This document shows positions 33,467 through 40,327 of a stretch of 64,000 bases of DNA, one piece after another (positions within the stretch are counted from its first letter, which is position 1; every line of letters begins with the position of its first letter). A program made the position numbers and the translations under genes. Under the pieces are notes generated by a model, which had not been told where the DNA came from, did not search any database, and saw only the letters and a program-made list of their open reading frames with translations. Source of the DNA: a bacterium (GTDB lineage Bacteria > UBA8248). The stretch is taken from contig OZ253442.1 in the NCBI GenBank assembly GCA_965261085.1, positions 544,001 to 608,000 on the forward strand, written 5' to 3'.

Positions 33467-34501
33467 TTATTCATCGGGTCCCAGGACGGTTCTGATTTTT
33501 TTTGCGAGTTCAGTGGTGATGAGACGCGCCGCCTCATCGAGCGGGGGCCTCATGCGCGCGCCTGAAGCGAAGGCATGGCCGCCGCCGCCGAACATGCGGG
33601 CGACGTCGTGAATCTCCACCCGGCCCTTCGAGCGCAGGCTCACGCGGATACGCCCGTTTTCGAGTTCTGAGAAATAGGCGATGACCTCGACGGACTCTAT
33701 CGAGCGGGGAACCGAAATGTATTCCTCCGTCTCGGAGCGCGAGACCCCGAAGCGCTCGAGTTCCATCGTCCTCAGGGTGAACCAGGCGAGGCGTCCACCG
33801 CAGTCGAGCGTCATGCGGCTCATCAACTCGCCGAGCAGCTTTATCGAGCCCGCGCCGTTCGATTCCCAGAAGATCGAGTATGCCTCCCCGGGGCTCGCGC
33901 CGAGTTCGACCAGGCGCGCCGCCCAGTTCAGGGTGCGCTTGGACGTGTTCGTGAAGCGGAACTGGCCTGTGTCGTAAACGAGGCACGCCATCAGCGCGCG
34001 GGTGATGAGCGGGTCGTCGAACGGGTAGCCTTCTTCGTCCAGATAATCCGCTATCATCTCGCCCACCGCTGCGGCCTCGGGGTCGATGACGGAGGGGCAA
34101 TCGATGTTGTCTTCTTCTCTGATGTGGTGATCGACGACGGCCAGGGGAAGGCCGCTGGCCATAAGCGGCTCCTCGAGCCTGCCCAGGCGGCTCGCCTTTC
34201 CCGTGTCGAGGATGAGGCACGCATCGAAGCGCTCAGCCCAGTCCTCTTGCGCGAGGAGATCCCCTCTCGAGCGCACCAGACCCTCCGGATCGAAGGACGC
34301 GACGAAGACGGGCGCCTTGTCCTCGGTGACGACGGTGGCGTGCTTGCCGATCTCGCGGAGGTAGCGGCTGAGCGCAAGGCACGCGAGAAGGCCGTCGCCG
34401 TCGGGCCCGATGTGGGTGAGAAGCAAGAAGCGATTGTGTTGCGCGAGGAAATCTCTTAAGGGCTGTAAGCGGCTTGGGCTTGGCGTTTGCTCCGTACTCA
34501 T
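33467..34501 (-). CDS. nrnA: DHH-family oligoribonuclease/PAP phosphatase
   Basis: HIGPDGD, ILDT, VDHH, DTGQF, SLRS, GGGGH. Confidence 0.88.
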   Translation of the reverse strand: MSTEQTPSPSRLQPLRDFLAQHNRFLLLTHIGPDGDGLLACLALSRYLREIGKHATVVTEDKAPVFVASFDPEGLVRSRGDLLAQEDWAERFDACLILDTGKASRLGRLEEPLMASGLPLAVVDHHIREEDNIDCPSVIDPEAAAVGEMIADYLDEEGYPFDDPLITRALMACLVYDTGQFRFTNTSKRTLNWAARLVELGASPGEAYSIFWESNGAGSIKLLGELMSRMTLDCGGRLAWFTLRTMELERFGVSRSETEEYISVPRSIESVEVIAYFSELENGRIRVSLRSKGRVEIHDVARMFGGGGHAFASGARMRPPLDEAARLITTELAKKIRTVLGPDE

Positions 34502-34514
34502 GCTCTCTTTGTAC

Positions 34515-35687
34515 TCATGAGGATGATTCCAGGCTCACGCGATGAATCTGTCGTAAAACGTAGCTTCTGATCTCCTTCGCCGAAGGAGCGGAGTCCGCGC
34601 GTTCGCCGCCTTTCATCACGCCGGCGAGCAACTGTTCCACCACGCCGCCGCACGACGCGCAATCCCCATAAGGCTTGTCTATCGGAATGACGCGCTCCGC
34701 CCCGCAATCGCGGCAGCGCAGCAGGTGTTTCGCTCCCGGGTGCTTGCCGCGCTTGGCGACCGCCTCGCCGTCCACCTCGACGATGTCCATCGAAAAATCG
34801 ATCGTGGCGGCGGCGCTGACCGACGTGCCCACGCCGTAGCCGCCGTCCACCACGGGGTTTAAATCCAGGATTTTCTGCTCATCCAGACCCCCGCTCACGA
34901 AGAGCTTCACGTGCGGGAAGCCCGCGCGGTCGAGCTCCCAGCGGATTTCCTCCAGGATCTGGTAGAGATTTCCCCGCCTTGAGGCCGGTGTATCCACCCG
35001 CACGGCCGAGAGCCTATCGGTCAGCGCGCGCGCCGCCTCCAGGGTTTCAAACCTCTCATCCCCGAACGTGTCCACCAGCGCGACGCGGCCCACCTCCGGC
35101 TCGATGACCTCATCGAACGCCTTGGCCGCAGGGACGAGGCCGCCCATGAGGATCACCAGCGCGTGGGGCATCGTGCCCACCGCCGGAATCTCCAGAAGCT
35201 CGGCTCCTTTCACGAGAGCGACGCCGTCGCAGCCGCCGACGTAGGCCGCGCGCTCGACCATCGGCGCGATGGCGGGGTGCATCCTCCGCGCGCCGAAGCT
35301 CACGAGCTGCCTGCCCTCCGCCGCGATGCGGCATCTGGCCGCCTTGGTGGCGATTCCGCTCGCCTGGCACATCAGCCCCAGGATGGGGGTCTCCAGCCTG
35401 CAAAAATCGTTGTAGGTTCCCGTAATTTCCAGAACGGGTTGGAAAGGAGTGAAAACCGTCCCCTCGGGCACGGCGCGAACGCTTACGGGGAATCCTTCCA
35501 GGAGGCGCAGAATTTCCTCCAGGCCCGTGAACACGCCCCAGCCGCTCGGGAGGGATTTGGCTGCGAATTCCGCGCGCACGTTTTTTCTGATGCCTTTGGC
35601 TTCGAGAATCTGGAGGGTCCGCTCGAAATAGACGTCCGTCACCTTGCCGGAGCGGATGTCGTCGAAATCGGCCGTGAAAAGACTCAA
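34515..35687 (-). CDS. pncB: Nicotinate phosphoribosyltransferase (archaeal-like subtype)
   Basis: TDVYFERT, SFGARRMHP, GTMPHA, VDTF, VRVDTP, VSGGLDE, GVGT. Confidence 0.88.
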   Translation of the reverse strand: MSLFTADFDDIRSGKVTDVYFERTLQILEAKGIRKNVRAEFAAKSLPSGWGVFTGLEEILRLLEGFPVSVRAVPEGTVFTPFQPVLEITGTYNDFCRLETPILGLMCQASGIATKAARCRIAAEGRQLVSFGARRMHPAIAPMVERAAYVGGCDGVALVKGAELLEIPAVGTMPHALVILMGGLVPAAKAFDEVIEPEVGRVALVDTFGDERFETLEAARALTDRLSAVRVDTPASRRGNLYQILEEIRWELDRAGFPHVKLFVSGGLDEQKILDLNPVVDGGYGVGTSVSAAATIDFSMDIVEVDGEAVAKRGKHPGAKHLLRCRDCGAERVIPIDKPYGDCASCGGVVEQLLAGVMKGGERADSAPSAKEIRSYVLRQIHRVSLESSS

Positions 35688-35712
35688 AAGAGGATTCCGC
35701 CAGGGAGACCCG

Positions 35713-36261
35713 CTATTCGGCGGGCGCCGTCTCGGCGGGGGTTTCGGGCCGTGTGTCCGCTTCCTGGTTCCTGAGGCCGAACAGCTTGCCCCAGGGCCTG
35801 GGGCCGGTGTAGTTCACCTCTTTTTCCCAGACGTCGTAGAGGCGCTCTTTCTCATAGACGAGATCTTCGCGGAAATATCCGGTCGTCTCGTACTGGTGGG
35901 TGTGGACGATGGATTTGGGCGTCGTTGGGCACGCCTCCACGCAAAGCCCGCAATACATGCACCGCATGTAGTCGATGTAGAACTCCTTGGCGTACATCTC
36001 GCGGCCCTTGCCCTCCGTGACGATGGTGATGCAGTCCACCGGACAGGCCTTCTCGCAGTTCAGACAGCCGATGCAAAGCTCCTCGCCCGTCTTGAAATCG
36101 CGCGTCAAGCCCAGAAAGCCCCTATAACGCTCGGGCGGCTCCCAGCGTTCCGTCGGGTATTGAAGCGTGACGGGTTTTTTGAACATGTGCCGCAGCGTGG
36201 CGGACATGCCCTTCACGATATCCCAGAGAAACAACTTCTGAAGCCCCCTGCTGAACTCCAT
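35713..36261 (-). CDS. nuoI: NuoI-like 2[4Fe-4S] protein outside a nuo operon
   Basis: VTLQYP, RYRG, CIGCLNCEKACP and CMYCGLCVEACP. Confidence 0.8.
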   Translation of the reverse strand: MEFSRGLQKLFLWDIVKGMSATLRHMFKKPVTLQYPTERWEPPERYRGFLGLTRDFKTGEELCIGCLNCEKACPVDCITIVTEGKGREMYAKEFYIDYMRCMYCGLCVEACPTTPKSIVHTHQYETTGYFREDLVYEKERLYDVWEKEVNYTGPRPWGKLFGLRNQEADTRPETPAETAPAE

Positions 36262-36283
36262 TTCCCTCTCCTCGCCTTAAACT

Positions 36284-37240
36284 CTAGGAAGCCGCCGCAG
36301 CGGCCTTCTTGGCTTCTACCTGGGCTTCGAGATATTTCTCGGCCGCCACCGCCGCCGTCGTCGCATCGCCCGATGCGTTGGTGATCTGGCGAATCAACTG
36401 GCTCCTGCAATCACCGGCCACGAACAGGCCCGGAACGTTCGTCTCCATGTTCTGGTCCGTGAGGATGAAACCGACATCGTCTTTTTCTACGTGATCTTTT
36501 ATCAAATCCGTGTTCGGAATAAAACCGATGAAGACGAACAGGCCCGTGGCGTCGAGTTCTTTCGTCTCGCCTGTCTTCACGTTCTTGATGCGCAGCTTCT
36601 TCATCTCCCGGTCGTCACCCACGACTTCTTCGGCCACGTAATCGGTGATGATCTCCATTTTCGGATTATCGCGAATCTTGTCCACCAGGACCGCTTGGGC
36701 GCGGAACTGATCGCGGCGGTGGATGATGTAGACCTTCGTACCGTACTTCGTGAGGAACTGGCCTTCTTCCACGGCGCTGTTCCCGCCGCCCACGACGGTG
36801 ATGACCTCATCCTGAAAAAACGCGCCGTCGCACAGCGCGCAGTAGCTCACGCCTTTCCCTGCGTATTTCTCCTCGCCCGGAATGCCGAGCTTTCTCGGAT
36901 AGCCGCCGGGCGTATAGATCACCGCGCCACAGCGGCGCTCGCCCATGTCGGTGACGACGATGAAATCATCCCCGTCTTTTCTCACTTCCGAGACGTCTTC
37001 CATCTCGATCTTGAGGCCGAATTTCATGGCGTGATCGGTGAACTTGGCCGCCAACTCCTGGCCGCCGACCAGTTCGAAGCCCGGGTAGTCTTCCACGTGC
37101 TCGGTGTTCAGAATCTCACCGCCGGGCGCGAGTCTTTCATAGCAAACCACGTTCAGCTTCGAACGCGCCGTATAAAGGCCCGCCGTCAGCCCGGCCGGTC
37201 CCGCCCCGATGATGATGATTTCGAAATCCCGCTCAGCCAC
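36284..37240 (-). CDS. trxB: Thioredoxin-disulfide reductase
   Basis: IGAGPAGL, GVSYCALCDG, VGGGNSAVEE, HRRDQFRA, AGD. Confidence 0.95.
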   Translation of the reverse strand: MAERDFEIIIIGAGPAGLTAGLYTARSKLNVVCYERLAPGGEILNTEHVEDYPGFELVGGQELAAKFTDHAMKFGLKIEMEDVSEVRKDGDDFIVVTDMGERRCGAVIYTPGGYPRKLGIPGEEKYAGKGVSYCALCDGAFFQDEVITVVGGGNSAVEEGQFLTKYGTKVYIIHRRDQFRAQAVLVDKIRDNPKMEIITDYVAEEVVGDDREMKKLRIKNVKTGETKELDATGLFVFIGFIPNTDLIKDHVEKDDVGFILTDQNMETNVPGLFVAGDCRSQLIRQITNASGDATTAAVAAEKYLEAQVEAKKAAAAAS

Positions 37241-37294
37241 AACGAATCTCCAGAACTAAAGAAAAGGAATTATATACAAAGTTGCTCCAAATGA

Positions 37295-37801
37295 CTATCC
37301 GATCACGCCGGCGTACGCCTCATTTATGGTCATTCTGTTTTGAAGAAGCGGTAGAAGCAAATTCCTGAGTCTCCGCGCATATTTTTCTCCTCTCTCAGGC
37401 TCGGCTATATATATGCTGGCATGCCCGGGATTCTCATTCAGTGCGGTATCGATAACGACAAATGCCTTTTTGCCATCATCCGTACAAAGTAGACGCACCG
37501 ATAAGGTTTGTAATTTCGCCACACCCTCGTCCTTCCAAGGTTCGTCTTTTCTAGGGCGAGACAACCTATTTTCCACTGACTCCTTTACGGTATCCGCTGA
37601 AACGTACTTCATCCGATGAACGGAAAATCCTTTATTCCAAAGGTCCTTGGCTGGTATACCCGTCTCAAACACTTCCCCATCCTGGACATGCTGAGGGTTG
37701 AACATTTCTCGAAGAAGAAATTCCTCGTCCTCGACAATCCCGGGAGAAATGCCCGGCGTGGCGCTCTTTTCCTCGTCAAGATGGGGAGAAGGAGCTTGCA
37801 A
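37295..37801 (-). CDS. Hypothetical protein, AT-richer (possible ART/RES-like fold)
   Basis: 168-aa ORF with FLLR...GFSVHR...NPGHASI spacing. Confidence 0.6.
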   Translation of the reverse strand: MQAPSPHLDEEKSATPGISPGIVEDEEFLLREMFNPQHVQDGEVFETGIPAKDLWNKGFSVHRMKYVSADTVKESVENRLSRPRKDEPWKDEGVAKLQTLSVRLLCTDDGKKAFVVIDTALNENPGHASIYIAEPERGEKYARRLRNLLLPLLQNRMTINEAYAGVIG

Positions 37802-37808
37802 GACTGTT

Positions 37809-38204
37809 TCAGGCCGTGAACAGTTCTACGATTTCGGAGGGCAACCCCTCGGATGCCAGAATATCTTCACCGTCGATTGGGCGTCCATCTTTGCCGTGCG
37901 CAAAGTAAGTATAATTACGCGTTCCATAGAACCCGAGATCAACGTGAACGCCATCTTTTTTCCACAAAAAATTGACTTCCCCGTCATCAGCCAGCCCTAT
38001 ATAGGGCACGGGAATCGAGTCCAGCGGCAACTTGCGAATGAAATTTTTAGCATCTCTAAACGCCTGAGCAGTAGGCCACGTTGCATCAGGCCAACGCTCC
38101 TCCTTGGGAGTTTTTTTGAGCCTCTCCAATTGCGCGAGCAAGCCCCGATTCAATTTACCGATCCGATCCGGGCGGACAGCGGTATGTGGTTGAGAAGCCA
38201 TCAC
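37809..38204 (-). CDS. Hypothetical protein, AT-richer
   Basis: 131-aa ORF, P.P.IG...DGEVNFLW pattern; 7 bp from the next gene. Confidence 0.6.
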   Translation of the reverse strand: MMASQPHTAVRPDRIGKLNRGLLAQLERLKKTPKEERWPDATWPTAQAFRDAKNFIRKLPLDSIPVPYIGLADDGEVNFLWKKDGVHVDLGFYGTRNYTYFAHGKDGRPIDGEDILASEGLPSEIVELFTA

Positions 38205-38338
38205 GTACTCCCATGCGCTTCATCGCCATAGATGCGCTCTCCAAGAGAGCAATTGCACTCTATCAACAATCCACCGCGAAGAAAACAGTCCCCGGCATTG
38301 CTTATCGTCCACTCGTTTCCCCGAACTCAACCCGCCCC

Positions 38339-38638
38339 CTACTCGGTGGGTTCCAGGACAAACGCGCCGAATTCTTTCTCCAAGCGCAGTTTTTTTCCGT
38401 CGTGCTCGAAGACAGAGCCTGGCGGGGTATCCTCATCCACCGGAACGTACTCCCCGCAAAGGGGACACGAAACCATCTGCACGATGGTGAGAACCTCCGC
38501 CCCTTCCGCCCGGCCCAGGCGGAACCTGACCCCCGCTCAGTTGCCGCAATCGATCAGGTCGCGCATTTTCGCATCCCACGGGATGGGTATGCGCTGCCCA
38601 CAGCCGGGACAGGCGAGAGTTCTGCGGTTTTCGCTCAC
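38339..38638 (-). CDS. Putative selenoprotein: tandem LysW-like zinc-ribbon protein with CxxU (99 aa)
   Basis: GTG start overlaps the upstream stop (GTGA). Translation MSENRRTLACPGCGQRIPIPWDAKMRDLIDCGN-TGA-AGVRFRL...VSCPLCGEYVPV...FEHDGKKLRLEKEFGAFVLEPTE*. TGA at 38539-38537 completes CxxC; hairpin follows. Confidence 0.75.
38504..38524 (-). promoter_or_regulatory. Putative bacterial SECIS hairpin (zinc-ribbon gene)
   Basis: UUCCGCCUG-GGC-CGGGCGGAA, 9-bp stem starting 12 nt after the in-frame UGA, G-leading apical loop. Confidence 0.65.
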
Positions 38639-38877
38639 GCGGCGAGCCCCAGCAGCGCCTCAAGCTTCGCCCTATCGAAGCCCACCACCTTCTCCTCGCC
38701 GATGAAAATCACGGGCGTCGCCCGCATGCTCGCCCTCTGGAACAACTCCTCCAGGGCTTCTTCGTCCTGATCCACGAGTTTTTCCGTATACGCCACGCCA
38801 TGATGGGAAAGAAACTCTTTCACCGCCTTACACGGCGCTCAGAACGTGGAGGAATAAACCGTCACCTCTTTCGACAT
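38635..38877 (-). CDS. Putative selenocysteine-containing glutaredoxin/NrdH-like protein (UxxC, 80 aa)
   Basis: AAGGGAG RBS, ATG 38877: MSKEVTVYSSTF-TGA-APCKAVKEFLSHHGV...RATPVIFIGEEKVVGFD. TGA (38841-38839) sits at the first Cys of the redox motif; cis-Pro TP and GFD motifs present. Confidence 0.88.
38795..38838 (-). promoter_or_regulatory. Putative bacterial SECIS hairpin (glutaredoxin gene)
   Basis: Lower stem GCGCCGUG/CAUGGCGU, upper stem GAAAG/CUUUC, apical loop AGUUU beginning 22 nt after the UGA. Confidence 0.6.
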
Positions 38878-38956
38878 CGGATATCTCCCTTGAAACCGGC
38901 ATGAGCCGCCCCGGCGGCAGGGGCGTCGCTCATTTTATCTCAAATGCAACTCTACG

Positions 38957-40327
38957 CTATCCGGGCGTGTTCACTCGCTCGAGCAGGGCGGCCAACTCTT
39001 TGACCCGGATAGAATCGAGCCTCGATACGGCGTCCACGATCTCCGCCCGCAAGGAGGCGTCCGTGTGCGCTTCGCTCAGGGCCTCGAACTTCTCGTTCAC
39101 CGTCGTCCAGCTCATCGGGGTGGAGAAATGCCCCTCCCAGGTGGGCTTGTCCAGCTTGTGGACGGTGCCGTCTTTTAACGTGATGGTGATCAGCACGGGC
39201 GACTGCGCGGGGTACCTGGCCGTCATCTCATCGGAATTGGTGGTGCGCACTTTCTTTAAGAGCGTCTGCACGTCGTCCGCGCGGATTCTCTCTTCCTCGT
39301 ACTGGGCGGGCAGGACCTGCTCGTCGATGATGGCCGCCGAGAGCACGTAGGGCAGGCTGTGGTCCGCCGTCTCCTTGTTCAGCACGTGCTCGCGCGCGCC
39401 CGCCTTGCCCTCGCCCATGATGAAATAGGCGCGCTCATAGATTCCGATCTCGATGTCTTCGATGTCCTCAGGACTGAAGCCGTGTTCTCGCTTCATGTCG
39501 ATGACGCCCTCGATGGCCGTCTGGGAGTGAAGCCCCGCGTTGTAGCGCTTCACGCTGATCTCGAGCATCTTGCGAAGCCCTGTGTCCGACCAGTCGACCT
39601 CGAATTCTCCCGTCACGGACTCGAAAACGCCCAGGGGGCCCTCGATCAACCGGAGCGGCCCCGTCACACCGCGCATGGCCAGAAACGTCGAGTGCACCCC
39701 GCTGTGCCCGCCGGCCGCATAGGCGAAGCCCTTCCAGTGGGAGAGTTCGCCCGTGCGCGTGATGAGCAGTGGGTTCTGGCGCACGCCGCTGAGAGCGATG
39801 GCGTTGGCCGTCCTCTCGGCGTCCAGCCCTAGAGCGCGCGAGGCGCCCGCCGCCACGGCGTAGGCCCCCGCCATGGGCTGGTCGAACCCTCTTTTCTCAT
39901 AGGGCGCGCTGTCGCACAGGCGGCACTGCACCTCATACGCCAGGGCGAGGGCCGTCATGAACTCCGCTCCGCTCGCGTCCGCGTATTCGGCCGCCGCCAT
40001 CACGCTGCCCGCGTTGTCGCTCGGGTGCGAGGTGGCGAGCTTCCCCATGAAGCCGTCGTTGAAATCGAGATAGCGGATCAGCGAGGTGTTGTAGAACGCG
40101 GCGCTATCGGGCGCGCTCTTGCCGCCCCCGATGAGCGTGCAATGCGCCGCGCCGCCGAAATCATCCGCCTGCTCGCGCAGGTAGCGGACGGGGCCTTCGC
40201 CCAGCGAACCGATGGCGCAGCCGATGGTGTCGACCATGAGCATTTTTAGCTGCCCGCGCATCTCGTCCGAGAGATCATCGAAACTGCTGTTCGCGGCGAA
40301 CGCCGCAATCTGTTCCACAATCGTCAT
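38957..40327 (-). CDS. MmgE/PrpD family protein (2-methylcitrate dehydratase-like)
   Basis: DTIGCAIG, RYLDFND, HPSDN, RTGELSHWKG, KETADHSLPY. Confidence 0.9.
   Translation of the reverse strand: MTIVEQIAAFAANSSFDDLSDEMRGQLKMLMVDTIGCAIGSLGEGPVRYLREQADDFGGAAHCTLIGGGKSAPDSAAFYNTSLIRYLDFNDGFMGKLATSHPSDNAGSVMAAAEYADASGAEFMTALALAYEVQCRLCDSAPYEKRGFDQPMAGAYAVAAGASRALGLDAERTANAIALSGVRQNPLLITRTGELSHWKGFAYAAGGHSGVHSTFLAMRGVTGPLRLIEGPLGVFESVTGEFEVDWSDTGLRKMLEISVKRYNAGLHSQTAIEGVIDMKREHGFSPEDIEDIEIGIYERAYFIMGEGKAGAREHVLNKETADHSLPYVLSAAIIDEQVLPAQYEEERIRADDVQTLLKKVRTTNSDEMTARYPAQSPVLITITLKDGTVHKLDKPTWEGHFSTPMSWTTVNEKFEALSEAHTDASLRAEIVDAVSRLDSIRVKELAALLERVNTPG

Follow-up and report, generated by a model that had tools for sequence, protein, structure and literature searches.

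A selenocysteine redoxin and a double zinc-ribbon selenoprotein as a conserved gene pair of mer-like clusters lacking MerA

The 64,000-nucleotide stretch of bacterial DNA analysed here, called the window below (contig OZ253442.1 of assembly GCA_965261085.1, positions 544,001 to 608,000; GTDB lineage UBA8248), comes from a genome that is a single 4.27-Mb contig. Its minus strand carries two small neighbouring genes that are predicted to encode selenocysteine (Sec, U)-containing proteins, a glutaredoxin-like redoxin and a protein with two zinc ribbons (the ribbon protein). We find that this pair is the conserved core of mer-like clusters without MerA in two distant branches. We assign a probability of about one half to the reading that the two proteins are a dedicated thiol/selenol pair for handling soft metals, in which the redoxin is probably recycled by TrxB, a low-Mr thioredoxin reductase (TrxR); that metal is bound, in which direction transfer runs and that TrxB is the reductant are points that we only infer. 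An earlier reading of the window, made from its letters (the sequence-only reading), had proposed a relay from NADPH through TrxB and the glutaredoxin to the zinc ribbon, and that proposal is supported in part.

Conservation of the pair within mer-like clusters

The two genes had been described as translationally coupled. Indeed, the GTG start of the ribbon gene overlaps the TGA stop of the redoxin gene (38637..38635) in the tetranucleotide GTGA. When 61 related genomes were searched in six frames, the ribbon protein turned up in 26, the window's own genome counted, and up to 20 kb was fetched around each of the 25 related loci. A 4-nt ATGA or GTGA overlap is present in 15 of the 26 loci by script count, while the offsets in the remaining 11 range from -13 to +18 nt, some of them artefacts of alignment offset. 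The linkage of the two Sec genes also extends to relatives: in 25/25 related ribbon-bearing genomes, five of which belong to a second family (f4), the ribbon gene directly follows a co-directional redoxin gene.

The genomes of one phylum are kin and their counts are not independent; a metagenome branch provides one independent replicate. Metagenome contigs were scanned with a distant ribbon subfamily (about 35-40% identical), and 80 loci of at least 497 confirmed were analysed. In 78 of these loci the ribbon gene begins 3-45 nt after the end of a redoxin homologue; the remaining two are cut at the contig start. Of the 77 metagenome loci that could be assessed, at least 69 encode a redoxin with the motif U-x-x-C; the ribbon proteins of this branch are all-Cys, with eight Cys in 73/80. 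For the window pair itself, RNA-library contigs from two runs of one study span the redoxin/ribbon junction (one of 422 nt that differs at 5 positions, another of 269 nt that differs at 2), which is compatible with co-transcription and no proof of it; the RNA-library contigs do not cover the whole of the stretch.

The neighbours that recur around the pair are mer-like. In the other genera of the window's family (f1), the interval from the ribbon gene to trxB is occupied by co-directional mer-like genes, and SHOCT proteins are also found in this slot. Neighbours above the cut-offs of their family models are MerF (NF033565, 89-93 bits, cut-off 50), MerE (PF05052, 35-36 bits, cut-off 22.8) and a CopZ-N-type metallochaperone (NF047645, 100.9 bits, cut-off 100); a MerR-type regulator (TIGR02051, 143 bits, cut-off 150.85) and a MerT-like protein (PF02411, 29.0 versus 32.9) score below theirs. 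In the GTDB set, where the phylum comprises 51 genomes, 15 of the 17 pair-bearing genomes outside the window's genus have a co-directional MerE-like gene at most 2.5 kb downstream of the pair. One of the other two has MerE on another contig, and the other, a 67% complete genome, has MerF adjacent to the pair. The metagenome loci have a second architecture, with a divergent MerR-type gene, a MerB-like gene, the Sec-redoxin gene and the ribbon gene, followed by MerF or MerT (MerR in 59, MerB-like in 65, MerF in 32 and MerT in 17 of the 80). The MerB-like genes score 55-57 bits with Pfam MerB. A GR/MerA-like flavoprotein is encoded in the loci of two relatives at 302 bits, against a cut-off of 454; a GR/MerA-like query gave no match in the 80 metagenome loci, whose short contigs make this weak evidence.

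Several of the neighbours appear to be selenoproteins themselves. MerT-HMA proteins of family f1 (loci L061, L063, L064 and L092) have two Sec residues, in GMSUPFTUP or GMTUPFTUP, although at L063 there is no single frame through the gene and the HMA part lies in another frame. A lipoprotein-like HMA protein of family f4 (L058 and L059) likewise has two Sec, in GMTUGGU or GMTUGAU. Existing NCBIfam models for Sec-containing HMA/MerT-type proteins, NF041115 and NF045683, gave weak matches.

Two further features of the metagenome loci were recorded. First, the MerB-like genes of L174 (4087-4770) and L205 (2647-3480) have an in-frame TGA in the sequence D-S-L-U-T-T-I-N-F-F, after which the frame continues for about 46-47 residues; we take this TGA to stand at the place of the third catalytic Cys of MerB. 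Second, a P1B-type ATPase with an N-terminal HMA domain (TIGR01525, 550 bits) is encoded about 2 kb from the pair in both of the long loci examined (L174 7202-9808 and L153 7404-10040) and is a possible efflux partner.

Selenocysteine recoding and the two proteins

We consider the Sec reading of both genes secure because of the comparative evidence, which agrees with the original call that both are recoded: the reading frames are conserved around the TGA codons, and Sec and Cys align in the homologues. The redoxin frame is open only if the TGA at 38841..38839 is read (U13, in the motif F-U-A-P-C), and the ribbon frame only if that at 38539..38537 is read (U34, in C-G-N-U); ribbon codon 13 is TGT in the window (38602..38600). 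Across the 26 loci the redoxin motif is always U-x-x-C, and ribbon positions 13 and 34 are always U or C, with TGA and Cys codons interchanging. The all-Cys form of the first ribbon site is found in 10 loci, U13/U34 in nine, U13/C34 in six, and C13/U34 in the window only. The window genome also carries selA (579 bits), selB (384 bits) and tRNA-Sec (75.9 bits), all over their cut-offs. Median pairwise dN/dS within the genus is 0.089 for the redoxin and 0.19 for the ribbon gene, compared to 0.085 for trxB, 0.109 for PrpD and 0.070 for the NuoI-like gene. Judged by these ratios, constraint on the ribbon gene is weaker than on its neighbours, yet not neutral.

Both UGA codons are followed by GCG, as had been remarked, but this is no signal: GCG is an Ala codon and it varies in relatives, where the codon after the redoxin UGA may be GCG, GCC, GCT, GTG, ATC, CCC, ACC or AGC/AGT. 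Candidate hairpins of the selenocysteine insertion sequence (SECIS) type do follow the UGA codons. In the redoxin gene the hairpin starts 18 nt 3' of the UGA, with an 8-bp stem in most relatives and 6 bp plus a mismatch in the window. In the alignment 90% of cells are paired and three pairs have changed on both sides, and the covariation exceeds that of 500/500 shuffles and of all slid controls. The hairpin for ribbon U34 has a 9-bp stem that begins 15 nt 3' of the UGA, and is kept in 10/10 U34-bearing sequences as well as in the close Cys34 forms of L047 and L048. Hairpins follow both of the ribbon UGA sites (13 and 34) and overlap conserved peptides; after each UGA the hairpin, with G in its loop, is found at a distance of about 20 nt. 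An Rfam scan of 38200-39000 gave no SECIS family and one chance match to an internal ribosome entry site far below the gathering score. We regard the hairpin evidence for Sec as supportive only.

The redoxin is, from its sequence, an NrdH/Cp9(YruB)-like small redoxin. The best NCBIfam model is TIGR02196 YruB (Cp9) at 78.4 bits, under its cut-off of 88.55, followed by TIGR02194 NrdH at 50.8 bits versus a cut-off of 85.75. Residues V5-T-V-Y-S9, P55, G66 and F67, which are NrdH/Cp9 motifs, are invariant in the alignment of the related loci. NrdH proper was considered and rejected: the active-site motif is U-A-P-C, not C-[VMI]-Q-C, and the gene is flanked by PrpD and the ribbon gene rather than set in an nrdHIEF operon. 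The analogy with NrdH and Cp9, together with the lack of any glutathione synthetase (gshB) over its cut-off in the window genome and the place of the redoxin gene beside trxB in most genomes of the genus, leads us to propose that the redoxin is probably regenerated by TrxB. The canonical thioredoxin gene is 2.3 Mb from trxB. Two other matches in this genome have one in-frame TGA each and are possibly further selenoproteins: a thioredoxin-like match at G000:C1:629269-629553 (+), and a second glutaredoxin-like match at 3596148-3596306 (+), with a flavoprotein disulfide-reductase-like gene no more than about 2 kb away.

The ribbon protein has a first site of the form C10-x2-C13...C31-x2-U34 and, in the window, a second site of the form C58-x2-C61...H79-D80. 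Cys or Sec is invariant at positions 10, 13, 31, 34, 58 and 61 in the 26 loci, and H79 is nearly so; the second-ribbon ligand pair varies, from HD in the window to CC or HC in distant relatives. The protein is modelled as a tandem of two LysW-type zinc ribbons, based on sub-threshold LysW matches (NF041070, 41.5 bits in two stretches, 1e-10, cut-off 75; PF21344, 25.2 bits, 1.2e-5, cut-off 27), on an all-beta AlphaFold (AF2) model built from the 26-sequence alignment (pLDDT 88.6) and on the Foldseek superposition of one ribbon half on LysW 3vpb_E (TM-score by target 0.74, root-mean-square deviation 1.2 A over 47 columns, probability 1.00). In the first ribbon, Sec is the second ligand of one or the other knuckle or of both (positions 13 and 34), and by analogy with the LysW fold these two second ligands would be spatial neighbours in a Cys4 ribbon.

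The ribbon family appears to be undescribed. No Pfam or NCBIfam model matches the protein above its cut-off. When 1.84 billion representatives were searched exhaustively with a profile, 90 proteins matched with E ≤ 0.001, 39 of them with E ≤ 1e-10, and the single member named by its source is called 'hypothetical protein'. Public gene calls cut the close relatives at the UGA: the 12 matches from a word-index protein search were all unnamed truncated fragments of 63-75 aa. A scan of genome contigs found eight loci, all in the same phylum. We found no published description of a zinc-ribbon or LysW selenoprotein, although the supplementary tables of selenoproteome surveys might list the ribbon protein.

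The trxB neighbourhood and the proposed role

The open reading frame (ORF) listing and the family scans agree with the minus-strand gene order given by the sequence-only reading, from the MmgE/PrpD gene to nrnA (Table 1). The PrpD gene is kept 5' of the redoxin gene throughout the genus and is probably not part of the module. At the other end, trxB, nuoI, pncB and nrnA look like a unit of their own. The NuoI-like gene lies directly 3' of trxB in every related locus with continuing sequence (L046-L070), and its product may be a dedicated ferredoxin-like partner of the sole TrxR.

Table 1. Features of the minus-strand locus in the window, from the upstream neighbour onwards, with promoter-like and hairpin elements last
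Feature	Position	Strand	Evidence or remark
MmgE/PrpD-family gene, upstream neighbour	40327..38957	-	Pfam MmgE_PrpD_N 219 bits, MmgE_PrpD_C 139 bits
Sec-glutaredoxin-like redoxin, 80 aa	38877..38635	-	PF00462 56.7 bits; U13-A-P-C16
Double zinc-ribbon selenoprotein, 99 aa, GTG start	38638..38339	-	two LysW-type ribbons (modelled), U34
Uncharacterised ORF, 131 aa, first cassette gene	38204..37809	-	G+C about 0.50
Uncharacterised ORF, 168 aa, second cassette gene	37801..37295	-	
trxB, low-Mr thioredoxin reductase	37240..36284	-	TIGR01292 362.5 bits, cut-off 343
NuoI-like 2x[4Fe-4S] gene	36261..35713	-	TIGR01971 123 bits
Nicotinate phosphoribosyltransferase (pncB)	35687..34515	-	NF006415 484.7 bits
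DHH/DHHA1 NrnA-like phosphoesterase	34501..33467	-	Pfam DHH + DHHA1; NF053633 87 bits, below cut-off
Promoter-like site TAGTCA-17-TATAAT, 5' of trxB at cassette end	37297..37269	-	10/12 matches
Candidate SECIS hairpin, redoxin gene	38823..38805	-	GUU loop
Candidate SECIS hairpin, ribbon U34	38524..38504	-	GGC loop

Two ORFs (the cassette) separate the ribbon gene from trxB, within a G+C trough of 0.47-0.52 over 37200-38250 versus about 0.59-0.65 on both flanks. Neither has a Pfam, NCBIfam or PADLOC match, and their closest Atlas clusters are all 'hypothetical protein'. The proposal that these lower-GC genes are a derived insert is upheld, since they are lacking in four pair-bearing genomes of the genus (G003, G021, G014 and G019) in which the spacer upstream of trxB is one shared with outgroup genera. 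The event was an insertion or a replacement. When the spacer of the no-insert genomes is compared by blastn to the cassette flanks, the match is confined to the final 45-54 nt that lead up to and enter trxB. In genome G010 all that is left of the 168-aa gene is a 23-aa remnant. The cassette (37295-38204, minus strand) is present in some species of the genus and absent in others, and it diverges faster than its neighbours (59-91% identity versus 85-98%). The idea that the pair stood beside trxB before the insertion holds within the genus, where about 130 nt separate the ribbon gene from trxB in the four no-insert genomes, but it fails as a statement about the deeper ancestral state, where contiguity is contradicted by the mer-like genes that fill the slot between ribbon gene and trxB outside the genus.

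Within the window's genus the mer-like genes are gone. MerE or MerF was found in 0/23 genomes. When eleven cluster proteins of relatives were compared by tblastn to the window genome, MerF, MerR, MerE, MerT, HMA, CopZ-N and SHOCT were unmatched, and the general PNDR and TlpA-like queries gave only homologues of 24-41% identity. The Sec-redoxin gene is present in 21 of the 23 genomes (the two without a match are 87% and 93% complete) and has PrpD on one side and trxB on the other in 19 of the 21; in G016 no trxB occurs within 10 kb, and the locus of G020 ends short of the expected place of trxB. Eight genomes have kept the redoxin gene and lost the ribbon gene, which indicates that the redoxin is independent of the ribbon protein. 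Three of these losses have left deletion scars (L123 in G002, L121 in G011 and L122 in G013), in which the first 9-16 ribbon codons, retaining C-P-G-U or C-P-G-C, follow an intact Sec-redoxin gene and give way to unrelated sequence.

To account for this distribution, we propose that the pair began as the cytosolic part of mer-like clusters without MerA, directed at soft metals of the mercury type, and that in the window's genus the mer genes would have been lost, leaving the pair, or the redoxin alone, directly 5' of the sole trxB. The first Cys/Sec4 site of the ribbon protein would bind a thiophilic metal, or would cycle between a reduced form and a selenenylsulfide or diselenide. The Sec-redoxin would carry out ligand exchange or selenenylsulfide exchange at this site, and TrxB with NADPH would regenerate the redoxin.

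A number of observations weigh against this soft-metal role. The chief one, against a strict mercury role, is the window genome itself, which has an intact Sec-bearing ribbon gene and no mer-like gene (no MerE, MerF, MerT, MerR-type, CopZ-N or MerB-like gene). Moreover, 13 of the 23 genomes of the genus retain the ribbon gene, and purifying selection acts on it, so that its role today cannot rest on mer transporters. In the clusters that were examined there is no clear MerA, so that 'mercury' is a family label of the neighbours rather than an established substrate, and the MerR-type regulators score nearly as high as CueR or ZntR types. As to trxB, it is absent within 10 kb of the pair in family f4 (0/5 loci) and was not found in the metagenome loci (0/80, with flanks of up to 5 kb, where short contigs make the evidence weak); in the no-insert genomes of the genus a promoter-like element, TTGGCA-N17-TAGAAT, stands about 100 nt 5' of it. 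As to the proteins and their hairpins, the Foldseek match to LysW 3vpb_E has an E of 0.04, above the 0.001 line of the search, and none of the hairpin folding energies is exceptional compared to shuffles (z of -1.58 for the redoxin, -0.27 for U34, and -1.86).

The first alternative is a metal-free electron chain from NADPH through TrxB and the Sec-glutaredoxin to the ribbon protein, which would be a terminal selenium reductant, with the trxB neighbourhood reflecting a shared pathway. We consider it unlikely. Redoxins of the NrdH/Cp9 type are TrxR clients and are often encoded beside TrxR, according to PMC3720550. In the genus, 11 of the 12 other pair-bearing genomes have trxB downstream on the same strand, the redoxin gene remains beside trxB where the ribbon gene has been lost, and in a diverged relative one RNA-library contig starts at the ribbon gene's 3' end, crosses the cassette and reaches into trxB, which is a weak hint of read-through. 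Other selenoproteins have CxxU as a redox motif. On the other hand, trxB is the sole canonical TrxR of the window genome (the next match has 51.5 bits) and is therefore a housekeeping gene, and its promoter-like element is family-wide, being found with small variants in outgroup genera too. In cassette-bearing genomes the trxB spacer is replaced, and a TAGTCA-17-TATAAT site at the cassette end, conserved there, is found instead; this site is weak taken alone (two sites found versus 1.4 expected). The neighbours conserved across lineages are mer-like genes, and the loss of the ribbon gene with the redoxin kept argues that the redoxin has other clients.

The link between pair and trxB that the sequence-only reading had drawn thus holds in one family, f1, where trxB is within 10 kb in 18/20 loci (in the other f1 genera in 7/8, at 0.5-4.4 kb from the ribbon gene), but not in f4 or the metagenome loci. 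What stands of the proposed trxB-linked module is a pair of coupled, genuine Sec genes with a redoxin of the TrxR-client type; what does not stand is a trxB link beyond one family, and trxB seems to have a promoter of its own. The adjacency of pair and trxB is probably inherited family-level synteny and no proof of a common pathway.

A second alternative, which we regard as improbable, gives the ribbon protein structural zinc and the role of a switch that responds to redox state or metals, acting for instance as a regulator or an adaptor, with a Zn(Cys/Sec)4 site that stress would oxidise or displace and the redoxin would reset. Such a switch would suit the two zinc-ribbon domains with their invariant ligands, the CC/HC/HD variation of the second site, which resembles that of structural sites, and the MerR-type regulators that adjoin the pair in relatives. 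However, the protein has only 99 aa, without a DNA-binding or partner domain, Sec ligands are costly and unusual at a purely structural site, and the conserved neighbours include transporters and metal-binding proteins besides regulators.

That the ribbon protein is an amino-group carrier of lysine or arginine biosynthesis (LysW/ArgW) is very improbable. LysW/ArgW carriers have a conserved acidic C-terminal tail for substrate attachment. LysW is the best family and structural match and the window protein does end in Glu, but both LysW models remain under their curated cut-offs, the neighbours are the redoxin and mer-like genes rather than ATP-grasp or kinase genes, and the C-termini of the homologues differ in both length and sequence and share no acidic tail, which does not fit a LysW-type carrier. 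No LysX/ArgX, LysZ or LysY was found among the scored neighbours, in which no search was aimed at these families. Finally, we give almost no credence to the idea that the in-frame TGAs are true stops, and the selenoproteins artefacts of pseudogenes or short ORFs, for while public calls truncate the close relatives, the hairpin energies are unexceptional and no Rfam SECIS model matches, the frames are open and conserved on both sides of each TGA in 26 loci, and the Sec/Cys alignment, the dN/dS of 0.09-0.19, the Sec machinery and the hairpin covariation all speak for translation.

Relation to known systems

The closest relatives of the redoxin in known systems are Cp9(YruB), with the TrxR-like reductase Cp34 and the peroxiredoxin Cp20, and NrdH with TrxB. 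In Clostridium pasteurianum, Cp9 is encoded between the thioredoxin reductase gene cp34 and a peroxiredoxin gene, and the NrdH/Cp9/BC3987 group has the motif [IV]-x-[ILV]-[YF]-[ST] before the active site and a conserved Pro, Gly and Phe (PMC3720550). The window redoxin resembles these proteins in being a glutaredoxin-fold redoxin of 75-80 aa with the same motifs and a gene beside TrxR. It differs from them in having U-x-x-C rather than C-x-x-C, in scoring below the YruB cut-off, in having as its partner a double zinc ribbon rather than a peroxiredoxin or nrdIEF, and in its mer-like context across lineages. Zhang et al. 2006 count Grx among the bacterial selenoprotein families (PMC1794560), and the window redoxin shares with those Sec-glutaredoxins the fold and a Sec that is first in the redox motif; unlike the Sec-glutaredoxins as described in that paper, it has a fixed zinc-ribbon partner and a mer-like context. 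Similarly, each half of the ribbon protein folds like the globular domain of LysW, as a CxxC...CxxC ribbon, while the protein as a whole departs from LysW/ArgW in its tandem duplication, Sec ligands and lack of an acidic tail, and in its gene context.

With MerP, NmerA and HMA proteins, and with the selenocysteine-assisted organometallic (SAO) system, the pair shares small proteins of the cytosol or periplasm with paired Cys or Sec that pass on a soft metal, which is here a prediction. Haft and Gwadz describe MerB- and MerT-related selenoproteins and gene clusters with many Cys/Sec motifs (SAO), and state that selenocysteine was not known in characterised mercury-resistance families (bioRxiv 10.1101/2022.07.06.499078). 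The clusters described here are like SAO, in so far as that preprint describes it, in grouping Sec/Cys-rich proteins with a MerB-related lyase and a thioredoxin-like protein. In contrast, no SAO family is above its cut-off here (the MerB-like genes have 51-55 bits versus 140 for SaoL), the ribbon protein is a zinc ribbon and not a ferredoxin-like HMA fold, and the window genome, unlike mer clusters and SAO, is without any mer-like gene. A mer operon at the window was considered and rejected: there is no MerR, MerT, MerP, MerF, MerE or MerA there, and such genes are present in part in relatives. A precedent for a TrxR that feeds glutaredoxins, and for a glutaredoxin that acts on a MerA-like enzyme, is the NTR-glutaredoxin pathway of Synechocystis, with a MerA-like mercury-reducing flavoprotein controlled by Grx1 (as cited in PMC8261052); as described there, that pathway has neither selenocysteine nor a zinc-ribbon partner.

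The double-ribbon protein, its forms with one or two Sec, and its fixed pairing with a Sec-redoxin were not found in family models, protein names or the literature, and we class them as a new selenoprotein family and partnership among the known modules for thiol/selenol redox and metal handling. A bolder reading, which we hold to be doubtful, is that this new family has a natural Cys2Sec2 or Cys3Sec zinc-ribbon site and belongs to a selenium-based, MerA-independent line of soft-metal handling with recycling by TrxB. The selenols of neighbouring knuckles would then clamp ions of the Hg(II) type or form a diselenide, and the partners would be the Sec-redoxin, Sec-containing MerT-HMA and MerP-like proteins, and a MerB-like lyase that also has Sec.

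Known Sec residues belong for the most part to catalytic redox sites or to Mo, W or Ni centres. Here Sec occupies the ligand positions of a zinc-ribbon Cys4 site, shifting between two positions or filling both within one genus. The pairing with the redoxin, and the repeated placement of the pair in mer-like clusters lacking MerA, together with more selenoproteins, point to selenium-based handling of mercury-type metals in uncultured bacteria. The window also illustrates that genes can stand beside a housekeeping reductase through inherited synteny, without belonging to its pathway.

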